From Malacoraja senta (lineage: Eukaryota), in assembly GCA_038087875.1 (NCBI GenBank), contig CM075992.1:4032001-4096000 (forward strand): 64,000 bases of DNA, in the 5' to 3' direction. Numbering within the stretch: position 1 is the stretch's first letter; every line of letters starts with the position of its first letter. This document shows positions 9,363-64,000 of this stretch, one piece after another. The notes under the pieces were generated by a model that had not been told where the DNA came from, did no database searches, and worked only from the letters and a program-made list of their open reading frames with translations. The translations under genes and the position numbers were made by a program.

Positions 9363-9541
9363 TAGGAAGGAACTGCAGATGCTGGTTTCAACTGAAGATG
9401 GACACAAAAAGCTGGAGTAACTCAGCGGGACAGGCAGCATCAAAGGTCTGAAGAAGGGTCTCGACCCGAGGGGCCACCCATTCCTTCTCTCCAGAGATGC
9501 TGCCTGTCCCGCTGAGTTACTCCAGCATTTTGTGTCATGCT
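9363..9541. mobile_element. Penelope-derived mini-element, inverted pair
   Basis: Two arms in opposite orientation, flanked by CCAAACATG (9354-9362 and 9542-9550) inside a CR1 fragment. Confidence 0.7.
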
Positions 9542-9959
9542 CCAAACATGGTCTTATAAAGCCTCAGCATTACATCCCTGTTTTCATATTCTAGTCCTCT
9601 CGATATAAATGCTAGTGCTTTGTTTTGATTTTTCGACACCGTGACATTTGGCACTGCGGATAGCTTTCAGCTCTTGGAGACACCACCCCTCGATATCCAG
9701 TTACCACGACAAAAAGCTTTCTGGCCTAGGCTGTGTGAAAGGCCTGAGCCTGGGGCATTAGATAAAGTTATTCTCAGCACAGTGAGTGGATCAAAATGAC
9801 ACACACTATTAGGATCAGCATGTTGCAATATGAGTGGAAGCATGAATTTAATATTAACTAGGCAAAGAAAAAAAATGTTATACAAGGAAAATACACAATA
9901 GGTGCAGGAGTAGGCCATTTGGCCCTTCGAGCCAGCACCACAAGGACCATGAAGCAATT

Positions 9960-10282
9960 TCCACCTGGAAAACATGAGGTAGCCAGAGTGAGTCCCACCG
10001 TTAGTTGGAGGAGCAACACCTCATATTTCACTTGGGCAGTTTACACCCCAGCGGTATGAACATTGACTTCTCCAATTTCAGTTAGTCCTTGCTTTCGCCC
10101 ACCTTCCCCTCCCCTTCCCAGCTCTCCCACAGCCCACTGTCTCCGCCTCTTCCTTTCTCCTTCTTGCCCCCCCACCCCCACATCAGTCTAAAGAAGGGTC
10201 TCGACCCGAAACGTCGCCTATTCCTTCGCTCCATAGATGCTGCCTCAAACCGCTGAGTTTCTCCTGCATTTTTGTGTACCTT
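9960..10282 (+). mobile_element. Penelope-like element 3' fragment (end of GIY-YIG ORF, UTR and hammerhead-bearing terminus)
   Basis: Encodes EEQHLIF.LGSLHPSGMNIDF, followed by the hammerhead-type CTAAAGAAGGGTCTCGACCCGAAACGTC segment. Confidence 0.75.
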
Positions 10283-10616
10283 CCACCTGGAAAAGGATGG
10301 TGAAATGTATCCAGAGGTGTTTGCACCAAATAGATTCATGGAGTCATTGAGTTACAGAGCATGGAAACAGGCCCGCCAACCATTCCCTCTCCCCAGAGAT
10401 GCTGCCTGTCCTGCTGAGTTACTCCAGCATTTTGTGTCTATCTTCGGTATAAACCAGCATCTGCAGTTCCTTCCTACACGGTACATGGATAGGACAGGTT
10501 TAGAGTGACATACATTCATTTATTCATTCATGTGGGCCAAATGCAGGCAGGTGGGACTAGTGTGGATGGGGCATGTTGGGCCGAAGGCCTGTTTCCGCTC
10601 TGTATCACTTTTTTTT

Positions 10617-10906
10617 GGTTTAGTTTGGAGATACAGTGTGGAAACATCGCCGACCAGCGATCCCCACATATTAACACTATCCTACACCCACTAGGGACAA
10701 TTTTTATATTTACCAAGCCAACTAACCTACAAACCTGTACGTCTTTGGAGTGTGGGAGGAAACCGAAGATCTCGGAGAACACCCACGCAGGTCACGGGGG
10801 AGAACGTACAAACTCCGTACAGACAGCACCCGTAGTCGGGATCGAACCCGGGTCTCCTGCGCTGCATTCGCTGTAAGGCAGTAACTCTACCGCTGTGCCA
10901 CCGTGA
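10617..10906 (-). mobile_element. HE1-like V-SINE
   Basis: Reverse complement of tRNA head, V-domain and tail. Confidence 0.85.
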
Positions 10907-11755
10907 CCGACCTATGACTCTATAACAGTGGTTTAAGAAGACAGCTCACAAACATCCTGAGTCCAGGTCCATTATATATGAGCAATAAAAACCGGATGCA
11001 TCTTCACATCCCAAACAAAAAGAGTTGCCAATGTTGCAGCAATGAGTGTGATGCAAGAGGATGCAGGGGGAGCAGAGAATCAATGGGTCGGTGGAGTGTG
11101 GCCAAGACTGAGAGCCGGGGGTGGGCGGGAGAGCACTGTTTACGCAATGCAATTACGCTGAAGAAGATAAAAATAATTGCTCTCCCTCAGTGAATTGAAA
11201 CAAAACGCTCACGCCTCTGTACAATGGGAGATCTCTGTTTCAAACCACATCCAGTTATCTGCTAATGTGCTTTAAAATAGATGGGATTGCTACAGAACTC
11301 TCCCTGCATGTTTTATTGTCTGGGCGTGGGGAGACTGGTCGCAATTTCCCATCCCAGTCCGTCTCCCAGTCACTGTGCAAACATAGATAATAGGCGCAGG
11401 AGTAGGCCATTCGGCCCTTCGACCCAGCACCGCCATGCAATATGATCATTGCTGATCATCCAGAATCAGTACCCCGTTCCTGCTTTCTCCCCATATCCCT
11501 TGATTCCGTTAGCCCCAAGAGCTAAATCTAACTCTGAAAATCCAGTGAACGGGCCTCCACTGCCTTCTGTGGCAGAGAATTCCACAAATTCACAACTCTT
11601 TGGGTGAAAACGTTTTACCCATTCCTTTTCTCCAAAGATGCTGCGTGTTCCGCTGAGTTACTCCAGTATTTTGTGTCTATCTTCGACAAACCAGCATCTG
11701 CAGTTCTTTCCTATATATATATATATAGGAAAGAACTGCAGATGCTGGTTTAAGT

Positions 11756-12066
<311 letters not shown>

Positions 12067-13654
12067 TGAACTTTTTTCTCTCTCTCGTTTATCATATTGT
12101 TTACAGTGTACTATGTTTACACATTCTGTTGTGCGCTGCAGGCAAAAAATTAATTGTTCTATCTGGGACGGATGACAATAAAACACTTCTGACCCTCACG
12201 TGTCCCTTGACACTCGACCTTTCTGATATTTGCATCAACTTAGGAGGCAAGGTGAAGAGTAGCACAACTTTACAGTGAACTAGGTTTACATATTGTGTTG
12301 TGCTGAAGCAAGCAAAAATGTCACTGTTCTATCTGGGACACATGACAATAAAACACTCTTGACTTGACTCTTGACTTGACTCTTGACAAATAAAAGTAAC
12401 AAATAATTTTGTGAAGGCACAAGACCCACAGTTCATGCGTTAGTGTTGAAGGCAATGTCAAGAGCCAAACACAACTACATTCTGCGCAGGTTTGCAGGAT
12501 CAAGAATAAGATATAGCCTTATATATCACTTTGGTGGTTGGAAATTCCTATTAACCTACAAGATTTATTATTTTTTAATGCACTGACTCAACGAACAGTG
12601 GAAGCAAACGCAATGGTGTTACTCAAAAGAGATTTGTTTGCATGTCTGAGGTTTACGGATGCTATGGGGCAAATGCAGTAGGGATAATTGGATAGCTTTC
12701 AACATAGAACATAGAACATAGTTCCATCCTGCTTACGGGTGCTGTCTGTACGGGGTTTGTACGTCCCTGTGGCCGCGTGGGTTTTCTCCGGGTTCTCCGG
12801 TTTCCTCCCACACACCAAAGACGTGAAAGTTTGTAGGTTAATTGGCTTCAGTAAAACTGTCTCGCGTGTGTGTAGGATTGGGCCAGTATGCGGGGATCGC
12901 TGGTCGGCGCGGACACGGTGGGCTGAAAGACCCGTTTCCGCGCTGTATCTCTGAACTAAATGAAGTGAATGTACAAACTCTGTACAGACAGCACCTGTGG
13001 TCAGGATCGAACCCGGGTCTCTGGTGCTGTAAGGCAGCAACTCCACCGCTGCGCCACCCTGCCGCCCACTATTGAAATATGAATGCGGAGGAAAAATTCC
13101 AGGGTATAGTAATCCAAGGATTAACAAGTCTCTGACACAACTGAACTCTACACCTCTGACAACAGCCAGGAATTCCCTGGGACCCACTTACACCTTGCAA
13201 CGTCGCCTGAAGTGATGTCGCCATGGTGACAGCCACCGACTCCAGTCTCCGATGAATTCTACCCCCTCTCTGTTAATAGTACTCATACAATGCAATCACC
13301 ATTCAAATTGAAAATGTCCAAGAGAATCAGCGAAAGCTAAACAAATAAATAATGTTTAAAATTCTTCCTGTGAGTTTAGAAAATAACTAATATAAGGGGA
13401 GATCCCCAAGGTTTAAATGTATAATTGGATTCAACAAGTAATTTCCAGCAAAGATTAATATATTGCAGATCTGGGTGAGCTTGAAGCCCAATAGGGAGTG
13501 CGATTTGGGATTGCTACGAGCTGGATATTTATTTTTAATGGTTGGATGAAAAATGTAGATAAGGAAGATTGCAAAGTTAAGGGCAATAGGGATCAAGTGC
13601 AAACACATCCTCCTGAAAGCTTTTTGTAGGAAGGAACTGCAGGTGCTGGTTTAC

Positions 13655-14383
13655 AACAGCAACAGTTTCTTCCCAGCTGTTATCAGGCGACTGAATCATC
13701 CTACCACAACCAGAGAGCAGAGCTGAACTACTATCTAACTCATTGGTGATCCTCGGACTATCCTTGATGGAACTTTGCTGGCTTTACCTTGCACTAAACG
13801 CGATCATGTATCTGCAATATACACTGTAAATGGATCGATTGTAATCATGTATTGTCTTTTTGCTGACTGGAAAGCACGCAACAAAAAGCTTTTCACTGTA
13901 CCTCGGTACATGTGACAATAATGTCAAAATGTCTCAGTCTCTAGTGTAGTCCATTGTCGGCTCTGACCTCCCTTCCATCGAGGGGATCTATCGCAGTCGC
14001 TGCCTCAAAAAGGTTGGCAACATCATCAAGGACCCACACCATCCTGGCCACTCACTCATCTCCCCGCTACCTTCAGGTAGAAGGTACAGGAGCCTGAAGA
14101 CTGCAACGACCAGGTTCAGGAATAGTTACTTCCCCACAGCCATCAGGCTATTAAACTTGGCTCGGACAAAACACTGAACATTAATAGCCCATTATCTGTT
14201 ATTTGCACTTTATCAGTTTATTTATTCATGTGTGTGTATATATTTATATAATGGTATATGGACACACTGATCTGTTCTGTAGTCAATGCCTACTATGTTC
14301 TGTTGTGCTGAAGCAAAGCAAGAATTTCATTGTCCTATCAGGGACACATGACAATAAACTCTCTTGAACTTGAACTTGACTTG
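13655..14383 (+). mobile_element. Two Rex/Babar-like LINE 3' fragments
   Basis: Encode H.L..PLPSGRRYRSL..TTRFRNSYFP.AIRLLN-type termini, end in GTGACAATAAA plus a short-repeat tail. Confidence 0.65.
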
Positions 14384-14972
14384 TGATATTGCAAGGACTA
14401 CTTTGTTATATCACAAGGACTACTTTGTTTGTCCGCGTAGCAACATGTATATGTGGGAATGACGTAATATGGGCAGGGGCACTCTGGTTCCAGATGGCCG
14501 TGAAATAAACAGAGCCTTGATTTCTGCTCAGCTTCAAACCCCTAAGTACGTGTACTTGTGGTCATTCCAGAGTCATAACAGTGGTATAACAGATACCGGA
14601 CCACGAAGTACAACATCTAGTGGACCTGTAAACGATCATGAGGACAGACACAAAATGCTGGAGTAACTCAGCGGGTCAGGCAGCATCTCTGGAGAGAAGG
14701 GAAGGGTGATGTTTCGGGTCGAGACCCTTCCTCAAACCTGAAACGTCATCCATTCCTTCTCTCCAGAGATGCTGCCTGTCCTGCTGAGGTACTCCAGCAA
14801 TCTGTGTATCTTCGGTTAAAAACCAGCATCTACCGTTCCTTCCTACACATGTAACCTACAAACCTGTATGTCTTTGGAATGTGGGAGGAAACCGGAGAAA
14901 ACGCACGCGGTCAGAGGGAGAACGTACAACGTTTGCACGGACAGGATTGAACCCAGGACCCTGACGCTGTTA

Positions 14973-16042: not shown

Positions 16043-16374
16043 CACTAGCTTATGTGGGATCTTGCTTTGTGCAAATGGACGGCTCCGCTTTCTACATTCT
16101 AACAGTGACCAGACTTCAGACGTACGTTATTGCCTGTAACATTATTTAAGATATCCTAGGTACCAGAAGGTACTAAAGAACTGAAGAGCAGGGTCTCGAC
16201 CCGAAACGTCAACCATCCCTTTGCCTCTACACATGCTGCCTGACTCTTTGACCCTAAGACATAGGAACATAATTAGGTCGCTCAGCCCATTGAGTCTACT
16301 CCGCCATTCGGTCATGGATGATGGATTTTTCTCTCTCAACCCCATTGTCCTACCTGTAACCTTTGACACCCTAA

Positions 16375-17035: not shown

Positions 17036-18789
17036 GTTTATATTTTGCTCCAGGTTCCAGCAGTCTCTTACCCCTCCACTGCAGAAGTAGTTTGGCTTTG
17101 ACAGTGAACCAAGCCCGCGCTCTGCTTCACACAACAATACCATCTTCCGGCATTGTTTAGTGATGGGAAAACATCCCGGTCAGGAGAAGCCAAGTCTAAT
17201 TGCGGCGTTCCTTCTCCTGCATCAGCTGGCATCAGTTAATTTAACAAAAAGTAGGTTAAAAGCCTTTAACTTCCTATCATATTAACGTCAGTCGCAGGCT
17301 ACGGAGCATTAGCTCTGCTGTACATCACCTGGAACTAATTCATTCCCCATTACAATCTAAAATTGTAATCCACACGATATCTGTGCTTCATTGATAACAC
17401 TCTCGGCTCTGAACAGACCTCGTTGGGTTCAAACGGCGTGGAGGACATTTCTCACTGACAGACACACTGTTCTCAATGAGATAAGACACATAAAGCTGGA
17501 GTAACTCACAGGTGCAAGCAGCATCTCTGGAGAGAAGGAACGGGTGATGTTTCGGGTTGAGTTTCCTTCTTCAGACTCTTCATCTGTCTGAAGTAGGGTC
17601 TTGACCTGAAACATCACCCATTCCTTCTCTCCCGAGATGCTGCCTGTCCCGCTGAGTTACTCCAGCTTTATGGAATGGGAATGGAATGGAATGCCCTATA
17701 TTGTCATTTAAATACGCAAGATTTGAACGAAAATTCAGGAAAAAATTGAAGTTGTACAAGAAATGTAATATGTTGCATATTATGATTAAGATGCATGTAC
17801 TTTGCTTCTAATAAAATTTAAAAAAATAATAATAATAATTTCGTTCCTGCAGTCATATCAGCAAAAAAAACAAAACCCACACACTTAACACAATTCCACA
17901 CAAACATCCATCACAGTGAATCTCCAAACACCTCCTCACTGTGATGGAAGGCAAAAGTCTTATCTCTTCCCTGTCCTTTGTTCTTCTCCTTTGCACCTTG
18001 CACTAAACGTCCTTCGTCAGGCAGCCAAACTGCAACGCCGCGGCGACCGGGACACCCGATGTTAAAGCCCCCGGCGGGCGACGGTAAGTCCCGCGGCCGT
18101 TAAGCCGCGCCGGTCGATGTAAGGCCCTGTGACGGGACGATTCAAACCCCTCGATTCGGGGCGGGCGAAGTTGCTGTTGCGGGAGCTCCCCGAAAATCGG
18201 TCTCCCACCAGGGACCCGCGAGCTCCCGACTCCACCGTCCACGGGGCCCGCGGCCGAAGCTCCGAAGCTCCGAAGTCGGATCGCAGCCGCAGCGCCACCA
18301 CAGCTCCAAAGTCAGCCAGCTCCGCGATGGTGAGTCCGCAGGCTCTACGACTGGAGCCCTCAGGTCGAGTACGGTTGGAGGAATGTGTCTATCTTCGGTA
18401 TAAACCAGCATCTGCAGTTCCTTCCTACACAATATGAATTCTTGTTCTCAATTCCACTTTCCCTGGCAAACTGTTCAAAAGTCACTGCCTTTTCAAGTTG
18501 TCTTGAATGCCAAGACCCAGCCACTGAAACCCAAGGGAAATATCGAAGTCCAATATGATTTCACTATTCAGTCACCGTTAACAAATCTGCCTAATTATAA
18601 AATCAAATTAAATTATGGAGTAAAATCCGCAGAACCCAAAAGGAAGCCTATTATTCCCATGTGACAAGATTACAATTTGATTTAGTCAGTGAATACAAAT
18701 CCAATTGCACTGCTCATTATGGTTTTCAACATGAGCATGTTCCAACTCTGATACAAATGTCTTGTCTGCTCTTATTACAACGTTTGCTT

Positions 18790-20450: not shown

Positions 20451-21298
20451 GATGATTAAACTGCCAGCCATTCCTATCCAGCTCGGCGTGGCTAATGAGA
20501 GCTGGCTGACCTTGTTACTGTATTACCGTGTAGTACCGTAATACTATGTAAAGGGTGGCATGCATATATGTGTAGTGAAGATCATAAATGGCATGGATTA
20601 ATAAGGGTTAATCTATACTTGGTATCTTTGTAAATGGTGTATAGGATAGTGTTTGTGTTCGGGGATCATTGGTCGGCCCGGCCTCAGTGTACATTTAGAC
20701 AGGTACATGGATAGGATATGTTTAGATACAAATGGGCCAAGGCAGGCAGGTGGGACTAGTGTAGATGGGACATGCTAGTTGTCATGGGCAACTTGGGCCT
20801 GTTTCCACGCTGTATGACTCTATTATGCCTGAAACCTAAGGATTCAAGTATTCAATTTAATTAAACTAATCTGTTTGTAAAACAGTCCTCAACGCGTCTG
20901 AAGAAGGGTCTCGACCCGAAACATTACCCATTCCTTCTCTCCAGAGACGCTGCCTGTCCCGTGGAGTTACTCCAGCGTTTTGTGTCTATCTTCTGTGAGA
21001 TCCAATGTCAGGAAGATGGATTGTGCCTTGAATCTTAACGGCAGCCTGCTGGGGAGCATTAAGCCGGCTGGGTCAGATATTGTCAGCTCTTCGTGGAAGA
21101 GAGAATAAAGCAGGAACGGTGAGGATTTGTATTACAGAAGAGACTAATTAGCCAACAGCACTGTGGAGTTTTGGAGCAAATTAGATACTTGGAGGTAGAG
21201 CGGAACGAAGGTACATTGCCAGGAATCAATGTTGCTCTTTAAAACCTGCGGGGACTTCTGCTCACGGTTGTAATTTGCTATCACTTTTGTTTCATTAA

Positions 21299-22390: not shown

Positions 22391-23494
22391 CTGTGCTAAA
22401 CTAAACATGGAAAGTGGTAATCAGGAAACGTCCTTGACCTTGTTTAACCCAATGCCAAGAAATCTCTTCGGCTTGCAATCCTCGTGATTGAAGAGTGTAA
22501 GAGCTGCACATTGAAAGATCTTCAGTCACAGAATGAAGCCATTGTTACAAGGCATTTTCTACATTCCCTCAAGCTCAGCGTGATCTTTTGAACCACCTTA
22601 GCCATTGTGGTAATAAAATAATGTTAAATCCTTCAGATCTAGGATCATCCTCTATATCTACTGGGCTTTTAGTGCTGAGAAAACGTTTTTCTAAAAGCCA
22701 GCCTGACTTGAGATTTGTTTGCATTCTTTAGCATTGTAATCCTTGTTTAATTCAGAGAAAGGTTATCCAGCTGAAGATTTAAGTAATGTTTAGCTAAATG
22801 AAACCTGGGATTACAGGATTCATAAAGATTCCCCTTTCCACCCTTCTGATATGCACGTGCAGAATGTGGTAATAAAAACAAAGGTAATATCAATAAATTA
22901 TTTGTAATGCAGAATTATTCTATTTGATCAGCATAATGAGCACATTGATTATGTATTCTGCATATTCTAGCCATGTTTGACTTTGGGAGTTGCCATCTGT
23001 GGAATGTAATAGGTCAACATTGAATAATATTAATCTAATATCCCGAAGTGCAAAGCTTATTTATCTTTGATATTAAAACACCCTGGAAGCATTTCGATTA
23101 TTCTCCCCCATTGAGGGTGGTATAGGTCGTGCATTGTAAAGAGAGCTCCCGTTTAATGAATGGGGAAAGCGTTGAAATGCAGAGCAATCTCTTCTGAGAT
23201 CCTAAAGCCATCCACTCGGGCGTCTGTGCCGTGTTTGTTCTTGGAGCGAGCGAGTCAAATTTCCCCGGGGTGCTGGTCTTTTGTCAATTATTTATCCCGT
23301 ACCCTTTTGAAAGTTACTGTTGAGTTTGCTTCCACTGCCACTCTTCTGCTCCTGTTTCCTTCTTTTCCAATCTAAGTGCCGCAACCCGCCTTTCCCCCTC
23401 CTCCGCCTCCTTCCTTTCACCAGATCTTCTGTTGTGCTGCAGCAAGCAAGAATTTCATTGTCCTATCTGGGACACATGACAATAAACTCTCTTC

Positions 23495-23528
23495 AGTCTG
23501 AAGAAGGGTTTCGGCCCGAAACGTTGCC
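23495..23528 (+). ncRNA. Minimal hammerhead ribozyme motif (UUCG subfamily)
   Basis: CTGAAGA-A-GGGT(TTCG)GCCC-GAAA-CGTT. Intact core, palindromic AACGTT stem III, GUU site. Confidence 0.6.
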
Positions 23529-23709
23529 TATTTCCTTCGCTCCATAGATGCTGCCTCACCTGCTGAGTTTCTCCAGCACTTTTGTCTACCTTCGATTTTC
23601 CAGCATCAGCAGTTCCTTCTTGAACTAAATGAAGACCCGCTGTGTTACTCCTCGAACTAAACTAAAACGCTTGAACAATATACTCTCTTGACTTGACTTG
23701 ACTTGACTT

Positions 23710-36967: not shown

Positions 36968-37348
<381 letters not shown>

Positions 37349-46600: not shown

Positions 46601-48606
46601 AGCTAACATTTTAAACATTGGTTAATAAATTGTGTTTGAGATCTTGCGTTTGCTAATGGAGTTCAGCTCCTTTATCTGCTCTGGTGCATTGTAATGTGTA
46701 GATCAGTAATGTGGAGCAGAGTAATTTGTATCGCGAAATATCCCAGGAAAAATCAGCTCGTCAGCGTTTAGTTCGATTATTGTCACGTGTACTGAGGTAC
46801 AGTGAAAAACTTTTAGTTGTGGGGCATGATATCCGGTCAGTGGATACTTCCTGACAAGATTGCAGAGATTGGGTTATGTCAGAGAGGAGTCTGTTGAACC
46901 TCTACAGGTTTACAGTGGAGAGCATATTGACTGGTTGCATCAGGGCTTGGTTCGCCAACTAGCACGGCCAGCAGGTAAGAAGACTGCAAAAAGTTGTGAA
47001 CATTGCCCAGTCCATCACGGGTACTGACCTCCCCACCATCGGAGGGACCTACAGGGAGTCAGTCGCTGCCTCAAAAAAGCATCCAGCATCATCAGAGACC
47101 CACACCACCCGGGCCACACGCTCATTTCACTCCTGCCATCGGGAAGACGGAGGAAGAAGTGCTGGAGTAGCTTTCGTTCCGCATGCTACAAAGCTTTTCC
47201 CTGTACCTCGGTACGCGTGACAATAAACTGAACTGAAACACTCCACTAAGAACAACGTCTCGACCCGAATCGTCACTGATCCTTTTTCTCCCGAGAAGTT
47301 GTGGATTTATGGAATTCCATTAGAATAAAGGGGGGGGTCATTTAAGACTAAGATGAGAACAAACTTTTTCACCCAGAGAGTTGTGAATTTGTGGAATTCC
47401 CTGCCACAGAGGGCAGTGGAGGCCAAGTCACTGGATGGATTTAAGAGAGAGTTAGATAGAGCTCTAGGGGCTAGTGGAGTCAAGGGATATGGGGAGAAGG
47501 CAGGCACGGGTTATTGATAGGGGACGATCAGCCATGATCACAATGAATGGCGGTGCTGGCTCGAAGGGCCGAATGGCCTCCTCCTGCACCTATTTTCTAT
47601 GTTTCTCTCTATGTTTCTATGTTGCCTGACCCGCTGAGTTACTCCAGCTTTTTGTGCTTTTCTTCTGTATAAACCAGCATCTTCTGATACAAGCAAGTAT
47701 CCTTGTTTACCCATGTGTCAGCAGTTCAGTTTAGTTTATTGACACTTGTACCGAGGTACAGTGAAAAGCTTTTGTTGCCTGCTAACCAGTCAGCAGAAAG
47801 ACAACGCATGATTACAATTAGATGCTTAGCTGCTGCCTCACCCGCTGAGTTTCTCCAGCATTTTTGTCCACCTTCGATTTTTCCAGCATCTGCAGTTCTT
47901 TCTTAAACATGAATACAATCGATCCATTTACAGTGTACCAGATACATGATAAGGGAATAACGTTTAGTGCAAGGTAAAGCCAGCAACGTCTGATCAAAGA
48001 TAGTCCGAAGGTCACCAAAGTGGTAGATAGTAGTTCAGCACTGCTCTCTGGTTGTGGTAGGATGATTCAGATGTCATTCCCTGCTCTGTAGATGCTGCAA
48101 GGAGATCTATACATGCTGCATACTAAACATTCTTAGGGAAGGATAGAGAGAAGAGTGGTGATCCCTCTGGGATCTGGGTACACATTCATCTCTGTGCAAG
48201 CACGAGCTGAGTGGATTATCGGCTCGTTCTTCTCCCTTGTTGCTAGTGGGAGCAGAGAGAGCAGGCATTGCCAGCCACGTTTCCCTGCTGCGCAACAGAG
48301 ATGCCCAAAGCCATATGTTACTTGTCAAGCACATTGACACATCCTGTCTCTCTTATCGATCGCCGACCAGAACAGAGTGAACATTTCCATTAAAGAACAG
48401 CCTTTTCGACCCGGGAAAGACTATCGACCGAGATGGATCACGGACTGACATTAGAGTCGCTGCCTCACAGCGCCAGAGACCCGGGTTCCATCCTGACTAC
48501 GGGTCCTGTCTGTACGGAGTTTGTACGTTCTCCCTGAGACCGTGTGGGTTTTCTCCGGGTGCTTCGGTTTCTTCCCACACTCCAAAGCCATGTAGTTTTG
48601 TAGGTT

Positions 48607-48791
48607 CACAAAAATGCTGGAGAAACTCAGCGGGTGCAGCAGCATCTATGGAGCGAAGGAAATAGGCAACGTTTTGGCCCGAAACGTTGCCTATTTCCTT
48701 CGCTCCATAGATGCTGCTGCACCCGCTGAGTTTCTCCAGCATTTTTGTCTACCTTCGATTTTCCAGCATCTGCAGTTCCTTCTTAAACAAA
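48607..48791. mobile_element. Penelope-derived mini-element forming a fold-back, inside a V-SINE
   Basis: 14-bp TSD TAGTTTTGTAGGTT (48593-48606 and 48792-48805). Confidence 0.82.
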
Positions 48792-51851: not shown

Positions 51852-54138
51852 AGCCATGATCACATTGCATGGCGGTGCTGGCTCGAAGGGCCGAATGGCC
51901 TACTCCTGCACCTATTGTCTATTGTCTATTATCCTTCTAAATTCATGTGTATGCAAGCCCAGTCGCTCCATTATTTCAACATATGACAGTCCCGCCATCC
52001 CGGGAATTAACCTGCGCTGAACCTACGCTGCACTCCCTCAATAGCAAGAATGTCCTTCCTCAAATTTGGATGCCAAAACTGCACACAATGTTCCAGATGT
52101 CCTATCCATGTTTCTTAAACGTTGCGATAGTCCCTGCCTCAACTACTTCCTCTGGCAGCTCGTTCCATACACCCACCACTCTTTGTATTAAATAATTACC
52201 CCTCAGTTTCCTGTAAAATCTTTCCCCCCTTCACCTTAAACCTGTGTCCTTTAGTTCTCGATTCCCCTTCTCTGGGCAAGAGACTCAGTACGTCACTGCC
52301 TCAGTTTCTTGGCTATGGAGCCTCGCATCTACAGAGTTGGTGGAAGGTCCTATTTCCATGCTGTATCTATCATCAACCCGATCTATTTCTCTCGTGATTT
52401 TATACCCCACGAACAGATATTTGATTCTGCGCTCCCTGGTTTTTCCGAATGCTTTAAGAAGTCCTGGGATTTGAAGTGCTCCTGTGTAAACACATATTTC
52501 TTATTCTTCAGCTTGTCTCCCGGGATTGTAGCCATCACTTGCACCACATCCAATCTCAGCAGTAAATCATTTCGCTGTTGTTCATTGCAGCAGACAGGTG
52601 AAAAAGTGAATAGTTGCTTCAACCGAACCAGAGTTCCTGCTGTTCACAATGGAAACATCCCTGCACATTGTAGTTGAGCAAATGTGAGCCCACTACTCAA
52701 CAAGGGCTGACACGGTGGCCCAGCGGTAGAGTTGCTGCCTTACAGCCCCAGAGACCCGGGTTCGATCCTGACTCCAGGTGCTGCCTGTTGTCCCTGTGGA
52801 CCGCGTGGATTTTTTTCCGGGTGCTCCGGTTTCCTCTCACACTCCAAAGGTTTGTAGGTTAATTGGCTTTGGTAAAATTGTAAATTGTCCTTAGCGTGTA
52901 GGATAGAACTAGTATACGGGGATCGCTGGTCGGCGGGGTCGCGGTGGGCCGAAGGGCCTGCTTCAATGCCGTACCTCCAAACTAAACTAATATGTGTAAG
53001 CAAGAACTGCAGATGCTGGTTTATACCGAAGATAGACGCAAAATTCTAGTGTACGGGGATTGCTGGTCGGCATGGACGCGGTGGGCCGAAGGGCCTGTTT
53101 CCACGCTGTATCTCTAAAATCTAATGTCTAAACTCTAGTTAAAGAGGGGCATCACAGTGGCACAGCTGGTAGAGCTGCTGCCTCACAGCGCCACCATCAC
53201 AGTCATTCCATCTTTCTGCTCAAGAAGGAACTGCAGTTGCCTATTTCCTTCGCTCCATAGATGCTGCCTCACCCGCTGAGTTTCTCCAGCATTTTTGTCT
53301 ACTTTCCATCTTATTGCAGTGTCTTGACCCAAAATGTTTACATATGTCTCCTGCTTCCACAGGTGCTGTTTGTCCCACTGAGTTTTTGTAACGTTCTGGT
53401 TTTTTGGAAATGAAAAAAAAAGAGAAACAAAGCAAATGATAGAGGAGAAAGCAAGAGAAAGGGAAGAAAGGAGAGGTGAAAAATGGGAGAGAGGAAAGAG
53501 ACGACAGATGAAAGAAAAAGAGACAGTGAGAAAAAAAGGAATAGCTGAGCAATCTTCCATTTTAATGTAATTGTAAGAATGTAAATAATACCCAGCTGTT
53601 TAATGGAAGTAGTAGCAGACAAATAGGGTAAGTAATTTAAAGCTTAAGAAGGATTTAAGGAGCTTGTTTGCGAAAGATAGAGAAGTGCCAGGGAGGTTTG
53701 GGGTGAGAAGACAATAGACAACAGGTGTTTCCATTCGGCCCTTCGAGCCAGCACCGCCATTCAATGTGATCATGGCTGATCATCCCCAATCTGTACCCTG
53801 TTCCTGCCTTCTCCCCATATCCCCTGACTCCGCTATGTTTAAGAGCCCTATCTAGCTCTCTCTTGAAAGTACCCAGAGAACCGGCCTCCACTCCACTCAG
53901 AGAACCACTCTGAGGCAGAGGACTCCACAGACTCACCACTCTCTGTGTGAAAAAGTGTTTTCTCGTCTCCGTTCTAAATGGCTCACCCCTCATTCTTAAA
54001 CTGTGTGGCCCCTGGTCCTGGACTCCCCCAACATCGGGAACAAGGGCTAGGAGTCTTGGTAGTTGAAGGCTGGTGATAAATGTGTAAATTAGTGAATGAA
54101 GATGAGGCCAGGACCAGAGTGGTGGCAAGATTCTAGAG

Positions 54139-55072: not shown

Positions 55073-55590
55073 GTCACATTCCACACGGTTCTTGACGTCA
55101 ACCAGAGCAAGCAAGAGGCTCGGGGAAAGCAGAAAGGATTCGAAGCTAAATGCAAGGAAATAATTTAACACATTAGGTGCTGAGAGCTAGTCCACATGGT
55201 TTGCTGGGCAAACATTCCTTGCCCGGTGACCAAGCTAGAAATAATCCCTGCAGTGAACATTACTGCCAATGTTTCAAAAGGTGATAAGATCAGAAGTGAT
55301 AGGAGTAGAATTAGGCCATTCAGCCCATCAAGTCTATTCCGCCATTCAATCATGGCTGAAGAAGGGTTTCGGCCCGAAACGTTGCCTATTTCCTTCGCTC
55401 CATAGATGCTGCCGCACCCGCTGAGTTTCTCCAGCACTTTTGTCTACCTGGGATTTTCCAGCATCTGCAGTTCCTTCTTAAACAATCATGGCTGATCTAT
55501 CTCTCCCTCCTAACCCCATTCTCCTGCCTTCTCCCCGTGACCTCTGTGTGGTCTTGCACGTTTATGATTCATACCCTTAGCAAGGGTAAA

Positions 55591-55624
55591 GTCTGAAGAA
55601 GGGTCTCGACCCGAAACGTCACCC
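55591..55624 (+). ncRNA. Minimal hammerhead ribozyme motif (CUCG subfamily)
   Basis: GT-CTGAAGA-A-GGGT(CTCG)ACCC-GAAA-CGTC-AC. Intact core, GUC site, very short stem I. Confidence 0.65.
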
Positions 55625-56189
55625 ACTCCTCCTCTCCAGAGATGCTGCCTGTCCCGCTGAGTTACTCCAACTTTTTGTGTCTATCTTCGGTGTAAACCAG
55701 CATCTGCAGTTCCTCGCTACACATTACGTCAAGGCGGCAGGTTGCTTTGTACGCTCTAACTTCAAGTAACCCTTGCATCCCCTCTCTCTCCGTCCCTCCC
55801 CCACCCCTAGTTTTCAAAGTTGCCCTGGTGTCTCATTGTCTGACACTCATTTAAACCTAGCCCACAGCTAACAATGGCCTGTTTCCTTTATCCGCTACAT
55901 ATTTCATTCATTTGTTCTATATCTCTCTATAGCATCTACAGTATATCTCTCGTGTAGGAAAGAACTGCAGGTGCTGGTTTAAATCCAAGATAGACACAAA
56001 ACGCTGGAGTAACTCAGCGGGACGGGCAGCATCCCTGGAGAGAAGGAATGGGTGAGGTTTCGGGTCGAGACCCTTTTTCAGACTGGTGGGCGGGACAGAT
56101 ATAGAATGTAGTCGGAGACAGTAAGGCTGGTCGGAGAACTGGGAAGGGGGAGGGGATGGAGAGAGAAAAACAGTTTAACTCCCCCTCCC

Positions 56190-56527: not shown

Positions 56528-59064
56528 TAGATTAACCTGGCATAATTGTGGGCAGAAAAGCCTCTTTCTATACAGTTTCATACATTGATGTAACATTTGT
56601 AACTGAAAATGATTTTTCTTCCCTTCAAAGTAAAAACAGCAATGACCATTTCCAGATCATTCCACCTCACACCACATAGTCAACCATCATTTCTGGCCAT
56701 TAGCTTCTGTCTCCGACTCAATCTCCACAGTTGTCATGCATGGGATTCTAATTTAGAATATTAGAGAGATACAACACAGATACAGTCCCTTCAGCCCACT
56801 GAGTCCGCACTGACCATCAACTAACCCAATTACTCTCATGTCCATAAGTCACTAGGGGTAGAATTAGGCCATTCGGCCCATCAGGGTCCACCCATCAGCC
56901 AATTCAACCATGGCTGATCTAACTTTCCCTCTCAATCTCATTCTCATGGGAAGGAACTGCAGATGTGTCATTGAAGATACAAGAGTAACTCAGCGGGACA
57001 GGCAGCACATCTGGAGAGAAGGAATGGGTGATGTTTGGGGACGAGACCCTTCTTCAGACTGAGCGTCAGGGGAGAGGGAGACACGGGGATAAAGAAGTAA
57101 GGTGTGAAGAGGAGACATCAAAGGGGAGGCAGTTCAAGGATGATGTAGAATAGATCAGGGAGAGGTGGCAACGAAGCATATAGAGATTAATTTTTAATCG
57201 AGGTCAGTCAAACTGGTCAGAGAACGGGGATGGGGGGGGGGGGGGGGATGGAGAGAGAGGGAAAGCAAGGATTACTTGAAGTTAGAGAAGTCAATTTTCA
57301 AAGGGTTGTAAGCTGCCCAAGTGAAATATGAGGTGGTGTTTCTCAACACCGACTTCTCTAACTTCAAGTAACCCTTGCCTCCCCTCTCTCTCGATCTGCA
57401 TTACCAAACTCTTCATTATGCTTTATCCCCCACTCCTTAGATCATGTCAATAGTACTTTTTAAATTCTAGAGAGTGCAAAAGATAGGCACAAAGTGCAGG
57501 AGTAACTCAGCGGGTCAGGCAGCATCTCTGGAGAAAAGGGATAGGTGACCTCTCGGGTCTTCAGACGGAGAGTCGGGGGGAAAGGCAAACGAGAGATATA
57601 GACACAATATGTTGGAGTAACTCAGCAGGACAGGCAGCATCTAGGGAGAGAAGGAATGGGTGACGTTTCGGGACGAGACCCTTCTTCAGACGGATTAATC
57701 CAACCTCCTCCACATTCCGATACATGATCCACATTCCTCAATTCCCTGCATATCCATGTGCCTATCTAATCACCTCTTTAAAGCCACTCTTATCTGCCTC
57801 TACCACCACCCCTAGCAGCACGTTCCAGGCACCCACCACTCTCTGTGTAAATAGAGACCTCCTTTAAATGTTGCCCCTCTCACCTTAAAACCGTGCCCTC
57901 TAGTCCTTGACATTTCCACTTTGGGGAAAAAGGTTCTGACTGAAGGATATTGCCAGAAGGACTGGAATACAAAAACAGGGATGTAATTCTGAGGTAGACA
58001 AAAGTGCTGGAGAAACTTAGCGGGTGCAGCAGCATCTATGGAGCGAAGGAAATAGGCAACGTTTCGGGCCTCTAAACCCTTCTTCAGACTGATGTAATTC
58101 TGAGGCTCCATAAGGCACTGGTCAGGCCACATTTGGAGTATTGTGAGCATTTATGGGTCCCATATCTGAGGAAGGATGTGCCGGCTCTGGAGAGGGTCCA
58201 GAGGAGGTTTCCCAGAATGATCCCAGGAATGAGTGGGTTAGAACATGATGAGCCTTTGACAGCACTGGGCCTGTGCTCGCTGGAGTTTAGAAGGCTGAGG
58301 GGGGGACCTCATTGAAACTCACCGAATAGTGAAAGGCCTGGATAGAGTGGATGTGGAGATGTGGATGTTTCCACTGGGGGGAGAGTCTGGGACTAGAGGT
58401 CACAGCCTCGGAATTAAAGGACGTTCCTTTAGGAAGGAGATGAGGAGGAATTTCTTTAGTCAGAGGGTGGTGAATCTGTGGAATTCTTTGCCACAGGCCA
58501 AGTCAGTAGATATTTTTAAGGCAGAGATAGATAGGTTCTTGATTAGTACGGGTGCCAGAGGTTTTGGGAGAAGGCAGGAGAATGGGATTAGGAGGGAGAG
58601 ATAGATCAGCCATGATTGATTGGCGGAGTAGACTTGATGGGCCGAATGGCCTAATTCTGCTCCTATCACTTATGACCTTATGACCTTCTGACTCGATGGT
58701 CTGAGCAACAGGGAGAGGTTGAGCAGGCTAGGATTTTATTCCCTGGAACACAGGAGGCTGAGGAGTGATCTTATAGAGGTTCACAAAATCAGGAGAGGAA
58801 TAGATCAAGGCTCTTGCCCAGAGTAGGGGAATCGAGAACCAGAGGGGCATAGGTTTAAGGTAAAGGGGGAATGATTTTACATAAATCCAAGGTGTATCTT
58901 TTTGCACATGAAAAGGGTGGTGGGTGTATGGAACGAGCTGCCAGAGGAGGTAGTTGAGGCAGGGACTATTGCAAAGTTTCAAAAAGCAATTAGACATGGA
59001 GTTTGTTTGAGAAGGTAGACAAAAGTGCTGGAGAAACTCAGTGGGTGCGGCAGCGAAGGAAATA

Positions 59065-59097
59065 GGCAACGTTTCGGGCCGAAGCCCTTCTTCAGAC
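59065..59097 (-). ncRNA. Minimal hammerhead ribozyme motif with C(UUCG)G stem II
   Basis: Minus strand GTCTGAAGA-A-GGGC(TTCG)GCCC-GAAA-CGTTGCC. Confidence 0.6.
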
Positions 59098-60273: not shown

Positions 60274-60289
60274 TAAGTGTTTGTAATCT

Positions 60290-60635: not shown

Positions 60636-60773
60636 CACTCCTACTTCTCCCTCACTCCCTGCTCTACCCACTCTTCTAACAAGAGAGTCGATGAGTTGAC
60701 TGGTCAACAATACGGACAAGCTGAAGCATTAAAGTTGACCTCGAGCTAGTTCTTTGAGCCAGAGCAATCCTAA

Positions 60774-61123
60774 AGCCCCTGTCCCACTTAGGAGACCTAA
60801 ACGGCAACCTCTGGTGACCTTGTCCTCCACCCAAGGTTTCCATGAGGTTACAGGAGCTTTGGTCACTCTCCCTAATGGTCGAAAGTGGTTCCCGCGTGGT
60901 CGAGGCTTCATCTAGGTTGCTGCTATTTTTTCATCGTGTTTAAAACTGGCCTCGACTGAAAATAGGTTGCCGTTTTAAAAATCGATAATTTTTTAGTCGC
61001 AGGTCTAGTCGAAGCCAGTTTTCTTCATAATCGAGGAAGGTTTTCAACATATGCGTGGGAGGTGGTAGGAGGCTGCAGGTCACCAGAGGTTGCTGTTTAG
61101 GTCTCCTAAGTGGGACAGGGGCT
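60774..61123. mobile_element. PIF/Harbinger-type MITE with about 45-bp TIRs
   Basis: AGCCCCTGTCCCACTTAGGAGACCTAAAC.GCAACCTCTGGTGACCT is inverted at the right end. Confidence 0.85.
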
Positions 61124-61233
61124 CTAATGCTTCTCGTTTCCCACAAGCTAATAACTCTGTGAAACACATGTTGACCCACTTTCTTCTGCATTAAAACTTC
61201 TCTCTGCACTAAAACACTCCAGAACGTGTAGAG

Positions 61234-61572
61234 TGGCACGGTGGCGCAGCGGTAGAGTTGCTGCCTTATAGCGCTTGCAGCCCCGGGGACCCGGGTTCGA
61301 CCCCGACTACGGGTGCTGTCTGTACGGAGTTTGTACATTCTCCCCATGACCTGCGTGGGTTTTCTCCGAGATCTCCAGTTTCCTCCCACACTCCACAGAC
61401 GTACAGGTTTGTAGGTTAATTGGCTTGGTATAAGTGTAAAATTGTCCCTACTGTGTGTAGGATAGTGTTAGTGTGCTGGGGTCGCTGGTCGGTGCCGAAG
61501 GGCCTGTTTCCGCGCTGTATCTCTAAACTCAACTAAACTAAACTAAACTAAATTAAAATAAATTAAACTAAA
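61234..61572 (+). mobile_element. Full-length HE1-like V-SINE
   Basis: Head, V-domain and (TAAAC)n tail. Confidence 0.88.
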
Positions 61573-64000
61573 CTGCAGATTCTGGAATCCTGATCAAAAT
61601 ACAAAGTGCTAGAATAATTCAGTGGTAGATGAAAATGCTGGAGAAACTCAGCGGGTGAGGCAGCATCTATGGAGCGAAGGTTTCCTTCGCTCCATAGATG
61701 CTGCCTCACCCGCTGAGTTTCTCCAGCATTTTTGTCTACCTTCGATTTTCCAGCATCTGCAGTTCCTTCTTAAACAGAGTAACTCAGTGGGTCAGGCAGC
61801 CTTCCCTCTCAACCCCATTCTCTTGCCTTCTCCTCGATAGTGCTAGTGTGTGGGGATTGCTGGTCAATAGACAATAGACAATAGGTGCAGGAGTAGGCCA
61901 TTCGGCCCTTCGAGCACAGCACCGCCATTCAATGTGATCATGGCTGATCATCCCCAATCAGTACCCCGTTCCTGCCTTCTCCCCATATCCCCTGACTCCG
62001 CTATCTTTAAGAGCCCTATCTAGCTCGCTCTTGAAAGTATCCAGAGAACCGGCCTCCACCGCCCTCTGAGGCAGAGAATTCCACAGTCGGTGTGGACTCA
62101 GAGGGCCTGTTTCCGCACTGTATCACTAAACTAAACTAAGCTAATATCTCCATGTAGCAAATGCTGAACCACTTTCTTCTGCATTAAAACCTCTCCCTGC
62201 ACTTATCGCTCAACAACCTTAATAACACTTGGTGTGATGAGGTAGATTTGTGGATTATGGAGATCAGTGGATCACCAATGTACATCTGTTCAATGGCTCA
62301 GCTGTTCCAAATAGCTAAGGGACAAATGGCAAGCCGAAAGGGTTCAGATATCAAAGTGACTAGAAAAGATTAACTCCCTTCTGGCACATTGGCTTTCATC
62401 AGTCATAAATTCATAGGTTCTAGGAGCAGAATAAGGCCATTCGGCCCATCAAGTCGTCATGTGCGCCCTCAGAATTAAAGGGCGCTCTTTTAGAAAGGAG
62501 GTGAGGAGGAACTTCTTCAGTCAGAGGGTTGTTAATCTGTGGAACCCATTGCCACAGAGAGCTGTGGAGGCCAAGTACGTGGATATTTTGAAGGCAGAGG
62601 TAGACAAGTTCTTCATTAGAACGGGTGTCAAGGGTTATGGGGAGAAGGCAGGAAAATGGGATTAGGAGGCAGAGATCAGCCATGATTGAATGGCCGAGTG
62701 GACTCGATGGGCCGAATGGCCTGATTCTATTGCTGTAATCTTGTATAATATGAACGTGTCTACTCTGCCATTCAATCATGGCTGATCTATCTATCCCTCT
62801 CAACCCCATTCTCCTGCCTTCACCGCATTACCCCCGACACCCGTACTGATCAAGAAGAGTCCTAGTACTGTATATAAGTTGCGAGGTCAGGTTGCAGTTA
62901 TGTAAGATGTTGGTGAGGCCACATTTCTGAGTGTTGTGTTCACTTTGGGCACCATGTTTTAGGAAAGACCGCTGGTCGGTGCGGACTCGGTGGGCCGAAG
63001 GTCCTGTTTCCGCGCCGTATCTCTAAACTACACTCAACTCAATCCAGTACCACTGTAAACCTCCCCAGATCCCTTAACAAGGCTCTCGTGCAGTTGATTT
63101 AAGTGTGTAATCAGTTAGCATTCAGCTCTCTCTCTCTCTAATTGTTATGGTAACCTCCTCACTAAAACGTGATCAACACCGCTTCCACTATCTGAGGGAT
63201 AGGACTTTCACAATTACATTAAGTATCCTCTCATTTCTCTATCATTTCATGGTTTTAAATTGAGTCTTTTCAACTTTCATGCTAAGCACATATTTTAGCA
63301 GAAATATCCAATTAGTTAAAACAGATTGCTATCTTGGTCAAATTCCCAATATATTTCATAGGGTGGTCTTATATGGTACACATTCCCTCTTTGTGCAGAA
63401 ACCAGTCATCTTTGTATTGATTTGATATGAGTATTCCAGCCTGTGAAGCATCTTTTCTAATCCTTGCTCGCTGAAAGTGTCATAGGTGTTGATATAAAAT
63501 CCTTGTGGACAAAAACAGAGAGCAAAAAAACATCACTTCTATTGCAATGTAAGGCAATATAAACTGAGCCAGGCTCATGGGAATGGCTTCAAAAACAAAT
63601 CCAATACACATTAAAATGAGCTTCGGATAAATCTATAGCTCCTTATTAGAGTTGGAGTCATAGATGCATACAGCACAGAAACAGGTCCTTCGGCCCATCT
63701 TGCCCATGTCAACCAGTTCAGTTTGTGCAATGATTTTATTTTAATCTCCAAGAAACCCAACCAGCGTTTTCAGATGCAGCACTCAGCTACTTAACAAAAT
63801 CCATGCACCAGTTTCAGTTTATTGTCCCGTGTACCGAGGTACAGTGATAAGGTTTTGTTGCGTGCTAACCAGCCCGCGGAACGACAATACATGATTACAA
63901 TCGAGCCATTTACAGTGTATAGATACATGATAATGGAATGACTTTTAGTGCAAGGTAAAGCCAGCTAAGTCCAATCAAAGATAGTCTGAGGGTCACCAAT

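Follow-up and report, generated by a model that had tools for sequence, protein, structure and literature searches.

Short units that carry a candidate hammerhead ribozyme are scattered through the window analysed here, a stretch of 64,000 nucleotides of Malacoraja senta (GCA_038087875.1, contig CM075992.1, positions 4,032,001 to 4,096,000). They raise the question of whether such units move as a retroelement lineage of their own, as the initial annotation of this DNA proposed, or are products of a larger Penelope-like element. Earlier publications already describe minimal hammerheads in Penelope termini, solo copies at dispersed sites and retrozymes derived from Penelope; the sharp 5' boundary of the solo copies is the one mechanistically useful addition that the window makes to this knowledge.

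Abundance and structure of the repeat unit

BLASTN searches with two copies from the window as queries revealed 57 merged pieces (49 of at least 40 bp) between 9361 and 61800, where more than 20 had been claimed. Together they occupy 4,635 of 63,600 non-N bases (7.3%, a few dozen query-flank bases included), and the very high density noted earlier, about 7% of the window, is thus confirmed. One of the two queries gave 0 matches on five shuffled windows, and the exact core pattern matched 12 times in the window versus 0 times in 100 shuffles. The unit has the sequence originally given and is present as two subfamilies, A (32 pieces, mostly 85-96% identical to their own majority) and B (17 pieces, mostly 93-100%). 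The reported length of about 130 nt holds for a form of ~134 nt, but a second form of ~97 nt also exists: 3' ends fall at +88 to +99 in 21 of the 49 pieces and at +128 to +131 in 17 (C3 = 0), and these two ends, ~37 nt apart, delimit an optional 'tail', matching the tail of 30-40 bp, optional and at one end, of published Penelope-like elements. Four of four copies tested lacked Pol III A and B boxes (generally known patterns, up to one mismatch), in agreement with the earlier reading. None of the 34 TRF rows for the window is a tandem array of the unit, and a single direct partial tandem was found (57480-57694), its second unit with a deleted core. The copies are as follows (TD, target duplication).

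9361..9536: head-to-head pair, tail on minus arm only; 9-nt TD
9975..10283 (+): 5'-truncated long copy with the final ~30 codons of the endonuclease, a short 3' UTR rich in pyrimidines and unit without tail; 14-nt TD
10374..10479 (+): A unit with tail, truncated within core
11617..11752: A piece with tail, (TA)n and inverted tail piece (tail-to-tail)
13625..13655 (-): tail fragment
14640..14850: head-to-head A pair, tail on plus arm only
16181..16244 (+): old solo copy, start at C3
16622..17035 (+): long copy with endonuclease C-terminus, UTR of the long type bearing deletions, and unit whose tail is partly deleted
17479..17672: head-to-head pair without tail, arms start at -3/-2
18384..18438 (+): tail-only fragment
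20896..20997 (+): solo A unit without tail, start at -2
23493..23628 (+): solo B1 unit with tail, intact core
25732..25864: old head-to-head pair, both arms start at C3
26725..26817 (+): old solo copy
28607..28836 (+): A copy with younger B1 solo unit inside (28680-28777, -), TD at least 11 nt
29595..29700 (-): old copy extending into UTR
29730..29863: head-to-head pair of a tail-only and a tailless arm; 9-nt TD
30081..30173 (+): old tailed copy
30877..31091: head-to-head B pair, one arm with tail; flanks with 15-nt direct repeat
36997..37090 (+): solo unit, internal deletion
38647..38842: head-to-head pair, tail on one arm
40774..40868 (+): solo A unit, start A(-3); 11-nt TD directly adjoining
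42911..43341: head-to-head pair, one arm in long UTR; another repeat displaces the tail piece
46062..46238 (+): C-terminus of endonuclease and beginning of UTR, without unit
47619..47908 (+): two 3' fragments, 47619-47682 (A) and 47827-47908 (B)
48602..48791: head-to-head B1 pair, fold-back at stem-II/GAAAC quasi-palindrome; 14-nt TD
52992..53384: three fragments, 52992-53043 (-), 53236-53312 (+), 53348-53384 (+)
55356..55483 (+): solo B1 unit with tail, within another repeat; 13-nt TD overlapping CTGA
55590..55724 (+): solo A unit with tail, the test copy of the initial annotation; no TD found
55740..55950 (+): end of endonuclease and remnant of long-type UTR (BLAST for 55754-55790, otherwise by eye and contig cover)
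55952..56530: long insertion in inverted form; its minus arm (55952-56159) holds UTR, unit and tail, its plus arm 53 codons of the endonuclease (56171-56329), UTR and core start (56498-56526)
56354-56413: short piece nested in the plus-arm UTR of that insertion
56948..57392 (-): long copy with endonuclease end (57260-57344), long UTR and unit
57345-57392: inverted endonuclease-end arm of that copy
57480..57694 (-): direct partial tandem of tailless unit, ~35 nt UTR and second unit with deleted core
57992..58092 (-): solo B1 unit; 15-nt TD adjoining AGTCTGAAG
59011..59097 (-): solo B1 unit; 9-nt TD
61624..61800: head-to-head B pair truncated past core, tail on one arm, plus 24-nt A piece

Relationship to Penelope-like elements

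In the long copies the unit sits 3' of the endonuclease stop codon, with a pyrimidine-rich UTR between, and the endonuclease end is of the Neptune type (GIY-YIG), which bears out the proposed Penelope origin. Over their last 28-55 codons, the endonuclease pieces of the window align with GIY-YIG-motif proteins of skates and rays; identity to skate-annotated GIY-YIG proteins is 73-77%, the best relatives are found in skates and rays, and one of these skate relatives aligns at 49% with a full-length protein comprising reverse transcriptase (RT) and GIY-YIG domains. Pfam gave no match on the short endonuclease pieces of the window, and the relatives match below the cut-off. No RT or Cys-rich linker pieces were found in the window; both are present in the relatives P0009, P0023, P0079 and the full-length P0094, and published descriptions have the linker as common to Neptune and Nematis. 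The search for a full-length skate element gave nothing above 49% identity. The unit had been said to end endonuclease fragments at 9960, 16622 and 56190, which is correct for the first two, but the arm at 56190 holds only 29 nt of it (56498-56526), the full unit of this inverted locus lying on the partner arm (55952-56085). Further endonuclease pieces, beyond those first listed, lie at 46062 and 57260-57392.

Moreover, 5' truncation, inverted and partial-tandem copies and variable target duplications are all present, as in endonuclease-positive Penelope-like elements. Eight of the 11 head-to-head pairs have the tail on one arm and none on both; the target duplications vary between 7 and 15 nt, and direct repeats of at least 7 nt occur at 13 of 33 insertions versus 41 of 1,056 mismatched flank pairs. 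The best-supported joints in other genomes likewise include inversions, with one arm starting as at 55590, and no common continuation behind the tail was seen in the contigs. We therefore hold with high confidence that a very abundant Penelope-like retrotransposon has this unit as its terminal repeat (pseudo-LTR), and that the copies were written by Penelope machinery.

The hammerhead motif

55593..55620 (+): minimal hammerhead motif of the test copy, with CUGAAGA core, extra A, 4-bp stem II, GAAA, palindromic ACGU, stem I of 2 bp only and predicted cut after GUC (55620)

The minimal type-I hammerhead with palindromic stem III that had been suggested is upheld as a candidate motif. None of the 45 Rfam matches with E up to 1 was to a hammerhead family, and hence the identification depends on the core pattern and on relatives. 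The CUGANGA and GAAA core, the extra nucleotide before stem II, G10.1-C11.1, the palindromic stem III and the NUH triplet are all present; stem I has two contiguous pairs in both subfamilies, short of the usual ~3-5 bp, while at least three pairs occur in 40 of 65 outside contexts with an identical core. All core letters are kept in 12 of 25 core-spanning pieces, and the CG palindrome too in 8. The 13 core and stem-III letters are identical in the A and B majorities, whereas other columns differ at 25 of 120 (p 0.058); the excess conservation looked for did not emerge, the core being kept no better than the rest of the unit. Dispersed copies likely decay neutrally. The active core is absent from the predicted free folds of monomer and dimer, and any ribozyme activity would require a dimer, probably with help from protein.

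A sharp 5' boundary

Among the 30 arms in the window that reach the hammerhead start, 22 stop at -5 to +1, versus 4-8% expected. Arms were classified by hand. The binomial p values (7e-25 and 5e-18) overstate independence, since the two arms of a pair do not count separately; the enrichment is roughly tenfold, and 13 of the 22 boundary arms lie outside pairs. At its 5' end, then, the unit is discrete, as first claimed, rather than part of a smooth truncation series, and the fixed end reads TCAGT/CTGAAGA. In the eight arms that run past the boundary, the 30 nt upstream are 73-90% pyrimidine and end in (T)CAG/T; recognisable tract letters beyond TCAG are kept in none of the 22 boundary arms. Target duplications adjoin or overlap the unit start at 40774, 55356, 57992 and 59011, so that no exon lies upstream. 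The 5' ends lie ~30 nt upstream of the predicted cut site and not at it: of 49 arms, only four have their end 4 nt or less from +28, and none at +28 itself, which is about the local rate. Outside families have their break point further upstream (~-13 to -22, by eye) or show almost none.

Origin of the short copies

We suggest that the short copies are likely solo pseudo-LTRs, generated when priming takes place internally, at the tail, and the RT then runs off the RNA at its 5' end; that this run-off causes the boundary we regard as an even chance. The RNA would start at or near the A of a putative initiator-like TCAGT in the 5' terminal repeat, a motif judged against the familiar initiator consensus. 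Together with priming in that repeat, such a start would yield a product of 97 or 134 nt, while priming in the downstream repeat of a read-through RNA would give the rarer long copies, followed by steep truncation. By analogy with the biochemistry of Anolis Poseidon (PMC11167929), the protein would nick AT-rich DNA on both strands, and cDNA would start at two internal 'tail' sites on uncleaved RNA, ribozyme cleavage not being needed. One of 124 outside matches (L088) has the 5'-repeat arrangement that the run-off model needs, the same hammerhead core as here with a full-length ORF beginning 185 nt further on. However, TCAKTY is common (1.4 per kb in the window, units included), which weakens the initiator argument. 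Moreover, published work on D. virilis Penelope places the start site ~120 nt ahead of helix I and an intron in the interval, a precedent that puts the transcription start elsewhere and counts against the run-off model. The differing break points of outside families, the lack of a long B1 copy here (0/6) and the failure to find a full-length skate element above 49% identity also count against it.

Possibly, though we consider it doubtful, the boundary is instead a roadblock, at which the RT, copying a normal Penelope 3' end, drops off at the C-rich polypyrimidine tract and CAG, owing to splicing or tract-binding proteins on the tract or to folding of the G-rich cDNA. The pyrimidine-rich sequence upstream of all eight run-on arms, whose (T)CAG/T end resembles a 3' splice site, speaks for this, as does the D. 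virilis intron end, which maps to the 5' end of helix I in the published account. Truncation past the boundary is also steep: no arm in the window holds more than ~55 endonuclease codons, and depth, as far as contig depth is a rough proxy, drops to 0.52-0.74 across ~70 nt of the endonuclease end. The loss of all tract letters beyond TCAG in the 22 boundary arms is nevertheless sharp for a stall, and the stop near -8 that a lariat branch point would be expected to cause was not seen.

The earlier proposal, that one or more dedicated SINE-sized, non-autonomous masters, driven by Pol II or read-through, give rise to short copies made in trans, appears unlikely. Both ends of the unit are sharp, and in the two large runs the endonuclease end has 0.09-0.11 of the depth of the unit (short to endonuclease-bearing copies ~10 to 1, contig depth being a rough proxy). 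Published accounts add that in Adineta pLTR sequences alone allow mobilisation in trans and that Chlamydomonas has non-autonomous Penelope-like elements. Yet in the tree (27 rows, 93 columns, support mostly weak) long and short copies interleave, with 6 label changes versus 6.3 when shuffled; A-type and hybrid-type short copies sit among long ones, and 0% of 200 bootstrap trees give short copies a single origin. A separate SINE-like lineage is thus not supported, except possibly for the youngest subfamily, B1, a clade with support 99/98 comprising six short copies and no long one in the window. The chance of 0/6 at the A-family ratio is ~0.09, and in one run the loose ends ahead of the B copy agree weakly (0.41) on a consensus with CCCCATCAGT at its end, a hint that long B forms exist. 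Independent movement is possible for B1 only. That it broke free as a true 97/134-nt non-autonomous element, with its own initiator and RT-priming tail and a crippled hammerhead, seems improbable to us; if true, B1 would be a self-sufficient, Penelope-driven equivalent of a SINE that lacks a Pol III promoter and has reached extreme copy number in skates, and its 5' ends would directly map Penelope transcription start.

A retrozyme-type cycle, in which hammerheads acting as dimers would cleave tandem transcripts to give monomers or circles for reverse transcription, is highly improbable. It would accord with tail-end-to-unit-start (head-to-tail) joints in 42 and 48 contigs of two runs from related genomes (one such joint, in which five letters separate the two, has depth 2,775 and may be a tandem array), with the direct partial tandem in the window, and with the tandem hammerhead repeats described in the one chondrichthyan sampled (Li et al., bioRxiv 10.64898/2026.07.22.740005). 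The 5' ends off the cut site, the lack of a unit array by TRF or of a circularly permuted series in the window, the 2-bp stem I, the core no better kept than the rest and the predicted folds argue against it. Plain continuous 5' truncation of ordinary Penelope elements, with which the scattered long-arm ends and the 19 of 49 arms ending inside the unit would agree, can be dismissed for the window, given that most arms reaching the start stop within ~7-8 nt.

Comparison with known systems

The unit resembles the minimal hammerheads of metazoan Penelope elements (fish Neptune, Poseidon, Xena; PMC4209133) in its type-I core and terminal-repeat position, in the extra nucleotide between 9 and 10.1, G10.1-C11.1 and the palindromic 15.2-16.2, and in that most motifs are dispersed single copies related to truncated elements. 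Unlike the Schistosoma families described there (helix I of 4-5 bp), it has a 2-bp helix I, as does D. virilis; that account, in the sections on these motifs, does not describe a sharp 5' boundary of solo copies or name sharks and rays.

As in Anolis Poseidon PAc (PMC11167929), two adjacent 3' ends lie ~100-135 nt downstream of the hammerhead, the flanks are AT-rich and copies show no sign of beginning at the cut site; both-strand priming of the kind reported for PAc would explain the head-to-head pairs. The clade differs (Poseidon there, Neptune-type here), the PAc ORF starts inside the hammerhead whereas in subfamily A the frame opened by the only obvious ATG contains a stop codon, and the PAc report, in its analysis of products, gives no dominant fixed-length solo product such as that seen here.

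Animal non-LTR retrozymes (PMC7229834; bioRxiv 10.64898/2026.07.22.740005) are likewise non-coding, hammerhead-bearing kin of Penelope terminal repeats, with dispersed monomers described and one chondrichthyan genome positive. They are, however, tandem repeats by definition (chondrichthyan consensus mean 363 bp), whereas the unit is 97/134 nt and dispersed; those characterised have canonical hammerheads and circular RNAs, whereas the unit's is minimal-type, of the same kind as the autonomous element's end.

The layout also resembles that of Adineta vaga Penelope (PMC3846280) and the general organisation of Penelope-like elements (PMC8557442), with solo pLTRs, a tail confined to one end, inverted head-to-head copies whose junctions are palindromic or overlap, target duplications of 8-10 bp and an initiator-like motif noted in a pLTR. 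Solo pLTRs are few in those descriptions and partly ascribed to recombination, whereas here they are the majority product, and several carry their own target duplications.

Identification of the repeat and its Penelope origin

The repeat considered here, a Penelope-terminus unit of ~97 or ~134 nt that differs in length by an optional 3' tail of ~37 nt, occurs in 57 merged pieces (49 of at least 40 bp; ~7% of the window; BLASTN with two window copies), and five shuffled windows yielded zero matches with the one of the two queries that was run. Its hammerhead core pattern was matched 12 times in the window versus 0 in 100 shuffles; thus, the dispersed, high-copy hammerhead unit proposed in the initial annotation is real. 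Alignment of the pieces separated subfamily A (n = 32) from a younger subfamily B (n = 17), with one nested copy:

28680-28777, B copy inserted within an A copy

The end of an open reading frame is located ~100-300 nt upstream of the unit, and its final 28-55 codons are repeated at several window sites:

9984, endonuclease ORF-end piece
16629, endonuclease ORF-end piece
46062, endonuclease ORF-end piece
56171, endonuclease ORF-end piece
57260-57392, endonuclease ORF-end piece

The 53-residue piece at 56171 shares 73-77% identity with skate-annotated proteins, and less with ray and shark proteins; together with the position of the GIY-YIG-end pieces, this supports the suspected Penelope origin of the unit. 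Most of these relatives are gene models that swallowed element fragments; they contain the GIY-YIG motif and, where their length suffices, a Cys-rich linker and reverse transcriptase (RT) motifs, and one aligns (49%) with a full-length protein in which RT and GIY-YIG are both present. From these matches, the host is probably a skate or ray. The Cys-rich linker is described as a mark of Neptune and Nematis (PMC8557442), and the element is probably of Neptune type. No RT piece was found within the window, a Pfam search of its endonuclease pieces gave no match, and no full-length chondrichthyan ORF was found. In subfamily A, a stop codon lies in the frame of the unit's ATG, a candidate start of the element's ORF. 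Several skate and ray gene models (P0002, P0006, P0008, P0009 and P0015) carry this endonuclease fragment at their ends, attached to genes with no relation to it (a neuromedin-U receptor, ATP synthase subunit C), and are probably mis-spliced models or exonised fragments.

Copy ends, inverted pairs and target duplications

End positions were counted from C3, the core start (0), which places the predicted cut site at +28, and the 49 arms (single copies or halves of pairs; almost identical to the set of 49 pieces of at least 40 bp) were sorted by hand and later re-inspected. At the 5' side, 19 arms end inside the unit, 8 run on into the UTR, and 22 stop at -5 to +1, 13 of the latter lying outside pairs, in which the two arms are non-independent. 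The resulting boundary stop rate is 73% versus 4-8% expected. The cut site has just 4 arm ends no more than 4 nt away and 0 exactly on it. The copies form no continuous series of lengths, in keeping with the earlier idea of a discrete unit, but ribozyme cleavage does not account for the fixed 5' boundary. A spliced upstream exon was ruled out for copies whose target duplication adjoins the unit start.

The 3' ends form two clusters ~37 nt apart (21/49 and 17/49). The stretch between them is the tail of Penelope-like elements (PLEs), which Frangieh et al. ascribe to RT starting at two sites inside the RNA (PMC11167929). Head-to-head pairs account for 11 of the 33 hand-set insertions, with the tail on one arm in 8 and on both arms in 0, and a twelfth inverted insertion is tail-to-tail. 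Direct repeats of 7-15 nt flank 13/33 insertions versus 41/1,056 mismatched pairs.

Origin of the short copies

In our best reading, the dispersed units are solo terminal repeats arising from internal priming. The RT of PAc, the Anolis Poseidon element, is reported to begin inside the RNA at the tail, to require downstream sequence, to extend both strands and to use uncleaved RNA (PMC11167929). The anatomy seen here, in which solo copies dominate and have one constant 5' end immediately ahead of the ribozyme and two constant 3' ends, is the one expected of internal priming on uncleaved RNA. Starting from the tail in the 5' repeat, the RT would copy back only as far as the first RNA base; such run-off copying would leave products of 97 or 134 nt that share a constant 5' end, and two cDNAs, one per strand of a single break, would give a head-to-head pair. 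We infer that the run-off would end at the RNA 5' end, near a putative initiator. L088, an outside locus from a distant relative, has the layout that the run-off model needs, with the hammerhead followed by the ORF start. The boundary sequence TCAGTC fits an initiator consensus, which is common by chance.

The boundary could instead arise where a roadblock at the C-rich tract and CAG halts the RT, an explanation that we regard as unlikely, if the strongest of the alternatives. Next comes the production of short copies by dedicated non-autonomous masters, likewise improbable and ranked slightly lower. In a tree of 27 copies, in which most forks are weak, long and short labels require 6 changes versus 6.3 with shuffled labels, which argues that short forms arise repeatedly from long-form subfamilies, and 0 bootstrap trees gave the short copies a single origin. 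B1, the youngest B group, is a 99/98 clade with 6 short copies, a number too small to decide on a separate lineage. The view of the terminus as a unit moving on its own is not supported for the long-form subfamilies and may hold for B1; the absence of Pol III A/B boxes from the unit was borne out in 4 of 4 copies. A retrozyme cycle fits poorly and is very improbable, since a tandem array of the unit is absent from the window. A smooth truncation series is hardly credible given the boundary stop rate.

Contigs from four coded runs were aligned to 55340-56353, and ~456,000 and ~486,000 were placed in the two large runs, a neighbouring unrelated repeat included. Endonuclease-end depth reached 0.11 and 0.09 of the summed unit depth in these runs, which, contig depth being no copy number, we read as roughly ten to one; the share was lower (0.05 and 0.02) in two presumed-RNA runs and is not read as evidence of expression. 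UTR depth was left unused: the subfamilies have different UTRs, which brings this depth below that of the endonuclease end. Among the top joints were inversions in which one arm begins at 55590, as well as tandems running from tail to start. Because the reference forces a loose end at 55590, that end is informative solely through its low agreement (0.34). Sequence beyond the tail was heterogeneous and AT-rich. One run, X1, contains a tail-to-start joint (55710 to 55590, five letters between) at a depth of 2,775 versus ~30-50 for single-copy sequence, which may mark A units arrayed in tandem, as a retrozyme-like satellite, in the genome of a relative.

Hammerhead motif within and outside the window

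In the unit, CUGAAGA and a single extra A precede a stem II of 4 bp, and beyond that stem come GAAA, ACGU (a palindrome) and either GUC or GUU; the unit thereby matches the minimal type-I hammerhead (min-HHR) described in PLE terminal repeats (PMC4209133); taken alone, a hammerhead in a Penelope terminus is ordinary. An Rfam scan of the window returned no hammerhead match, its miRNA-like matches being fold-back pairs and microsatellites. Stem I comprises just 2 contiguous pairs. Neither the free monomer nor the free dimer is predicted to reach the active form, single-strand folding gives no stability beyond that of shuffled sequences (z -0.8 to +1.0), and RNAalifold on 21 gappy copies predicted zero pairs. 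An eye-catching GAUGCUG/CAGCAUC helix into the tail thus has no covariation support in these copies.

The suggested excess conservation of the core was likewise not seen among copies (26/299 mismatches versus 246/3,312 in flanks, p 0.42); such decay is expected of dead copies and says nothing on the master. Between the A and B majorities, 0/13 core positions changed versus 25/120 elsewhere (p 0.058), a weak sign of possible constraint on masters. As the family is highly successful with a stem I of just 2 bp, cleavage may be dispensable. In B1 copies (23505-23522 and others), the changed stem-II loop allows a second hairpin, GUUUCG/CGAAAC, predicted to sequester the GAAA core, and this is the exact point at which the 48602-48791 pair folds back.

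The same core was found in 120 metagenome loci, only 1 of which gave a BLASTN match to the unit (33 nt), so these are distant relatives and not family members; viral contigs gave 0 matches. Of 124 outside core matches, 28 have a Penelope ORF upstream in the same orientation; in 25 of these, 71-127 nt separate the ORF end from the core. At least three stem-I pairs occur in 15/32 distinct flank pairs versus 3.5 in shuffles (0/10,000), and in 40/65 contexts; stem I thus covaries across these loci, which identifies the motif class as a selected structure. An inverted core lies at most 80 nt away in 14/89 unique upstream contexts. The largest outside family breaks off within ~22 nt of the core in 14/26 contexts and the second near it in only 2/24 (judged by eye, with some insertions represented by more than one row), hence a break close to where the hammerhead begins recurs but varies by family. 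The outside core closest to the window unit (L077:546-578, minus strand) has a 3-bp stem I (AGU/ACU) and is one letter off subfamily A.

Other elements in the window

2844-8800, minus strand, LINE, long and almost complete, with upstream ORF pieces, frameshift-broken; presumably L1/Tx1-like
3947-5992, AP-endonuclease plus RT frame of this LINE (Pfam RVT_1, Exo_endo_phos)
14975-15300, element with terminal inverted repeat GGCCTGTCCCAC
16377-16601, same terminal inverted repeat
32297-33600, same terminal inverted repeat
33614-33831, same terminal inverted repeat
42412-42615, same terminal inverted repeat
43421-43691, same terminal inverted repeat
59696-60271, same terminal inverted repeat
61233-61520, abundant tRNA-like SINE-type repeat, often in inverted pieces (e.g., 10640-10910, 12720-13070, 15740-16025)
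27384-27866, minisatellite, 48 bp, 10 copies, 95%
37413-37644, minisatellite, 61 bp, 3.8 copies, 97%

The seven MITE-like elements have TAA/TTA-like flanks and differing interiors, and we take them to be Harbinger; the SINE-type repeat is probably the known shark and ray SINE.

Comparison with known systems

Dispersed min-HHRs derived from truncated PLEs (PMC4209133), solo and inverted pseudo-LTRs (pLTRs; PMC3846280), non-autonomous PLEs (PMC8557442) and PLE-derived retrozymes, one chondrichthyan included (bioRxiv 10.64898/2026.07.22.740005; PMC7229834), are all described in print. A literature search on Penelope in skates, sharks and Chondrichthyes gave nothing on the skate unit family by title or abstract, and the family may already be catalogued in Repbase or Dfam, or among the chondrichthyan consensus sequences of the bioRxiv preprint. 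The sharp 5' boundary is the part of the finding worth follow-up. Skate genomes offer a very large in vivo sample for asking where Penelope transcripts begin and whether the hammerhead cuts at all during transposition; moreover, solo Penelope ends risk mis-annotation as SINEs or retrozymes. The Penelope element of D. virilis is described as having an internal promoter whose initiator is within the pLTR, but that initiator lies further upstream than the boundary of the skate unit (PMC2377424).
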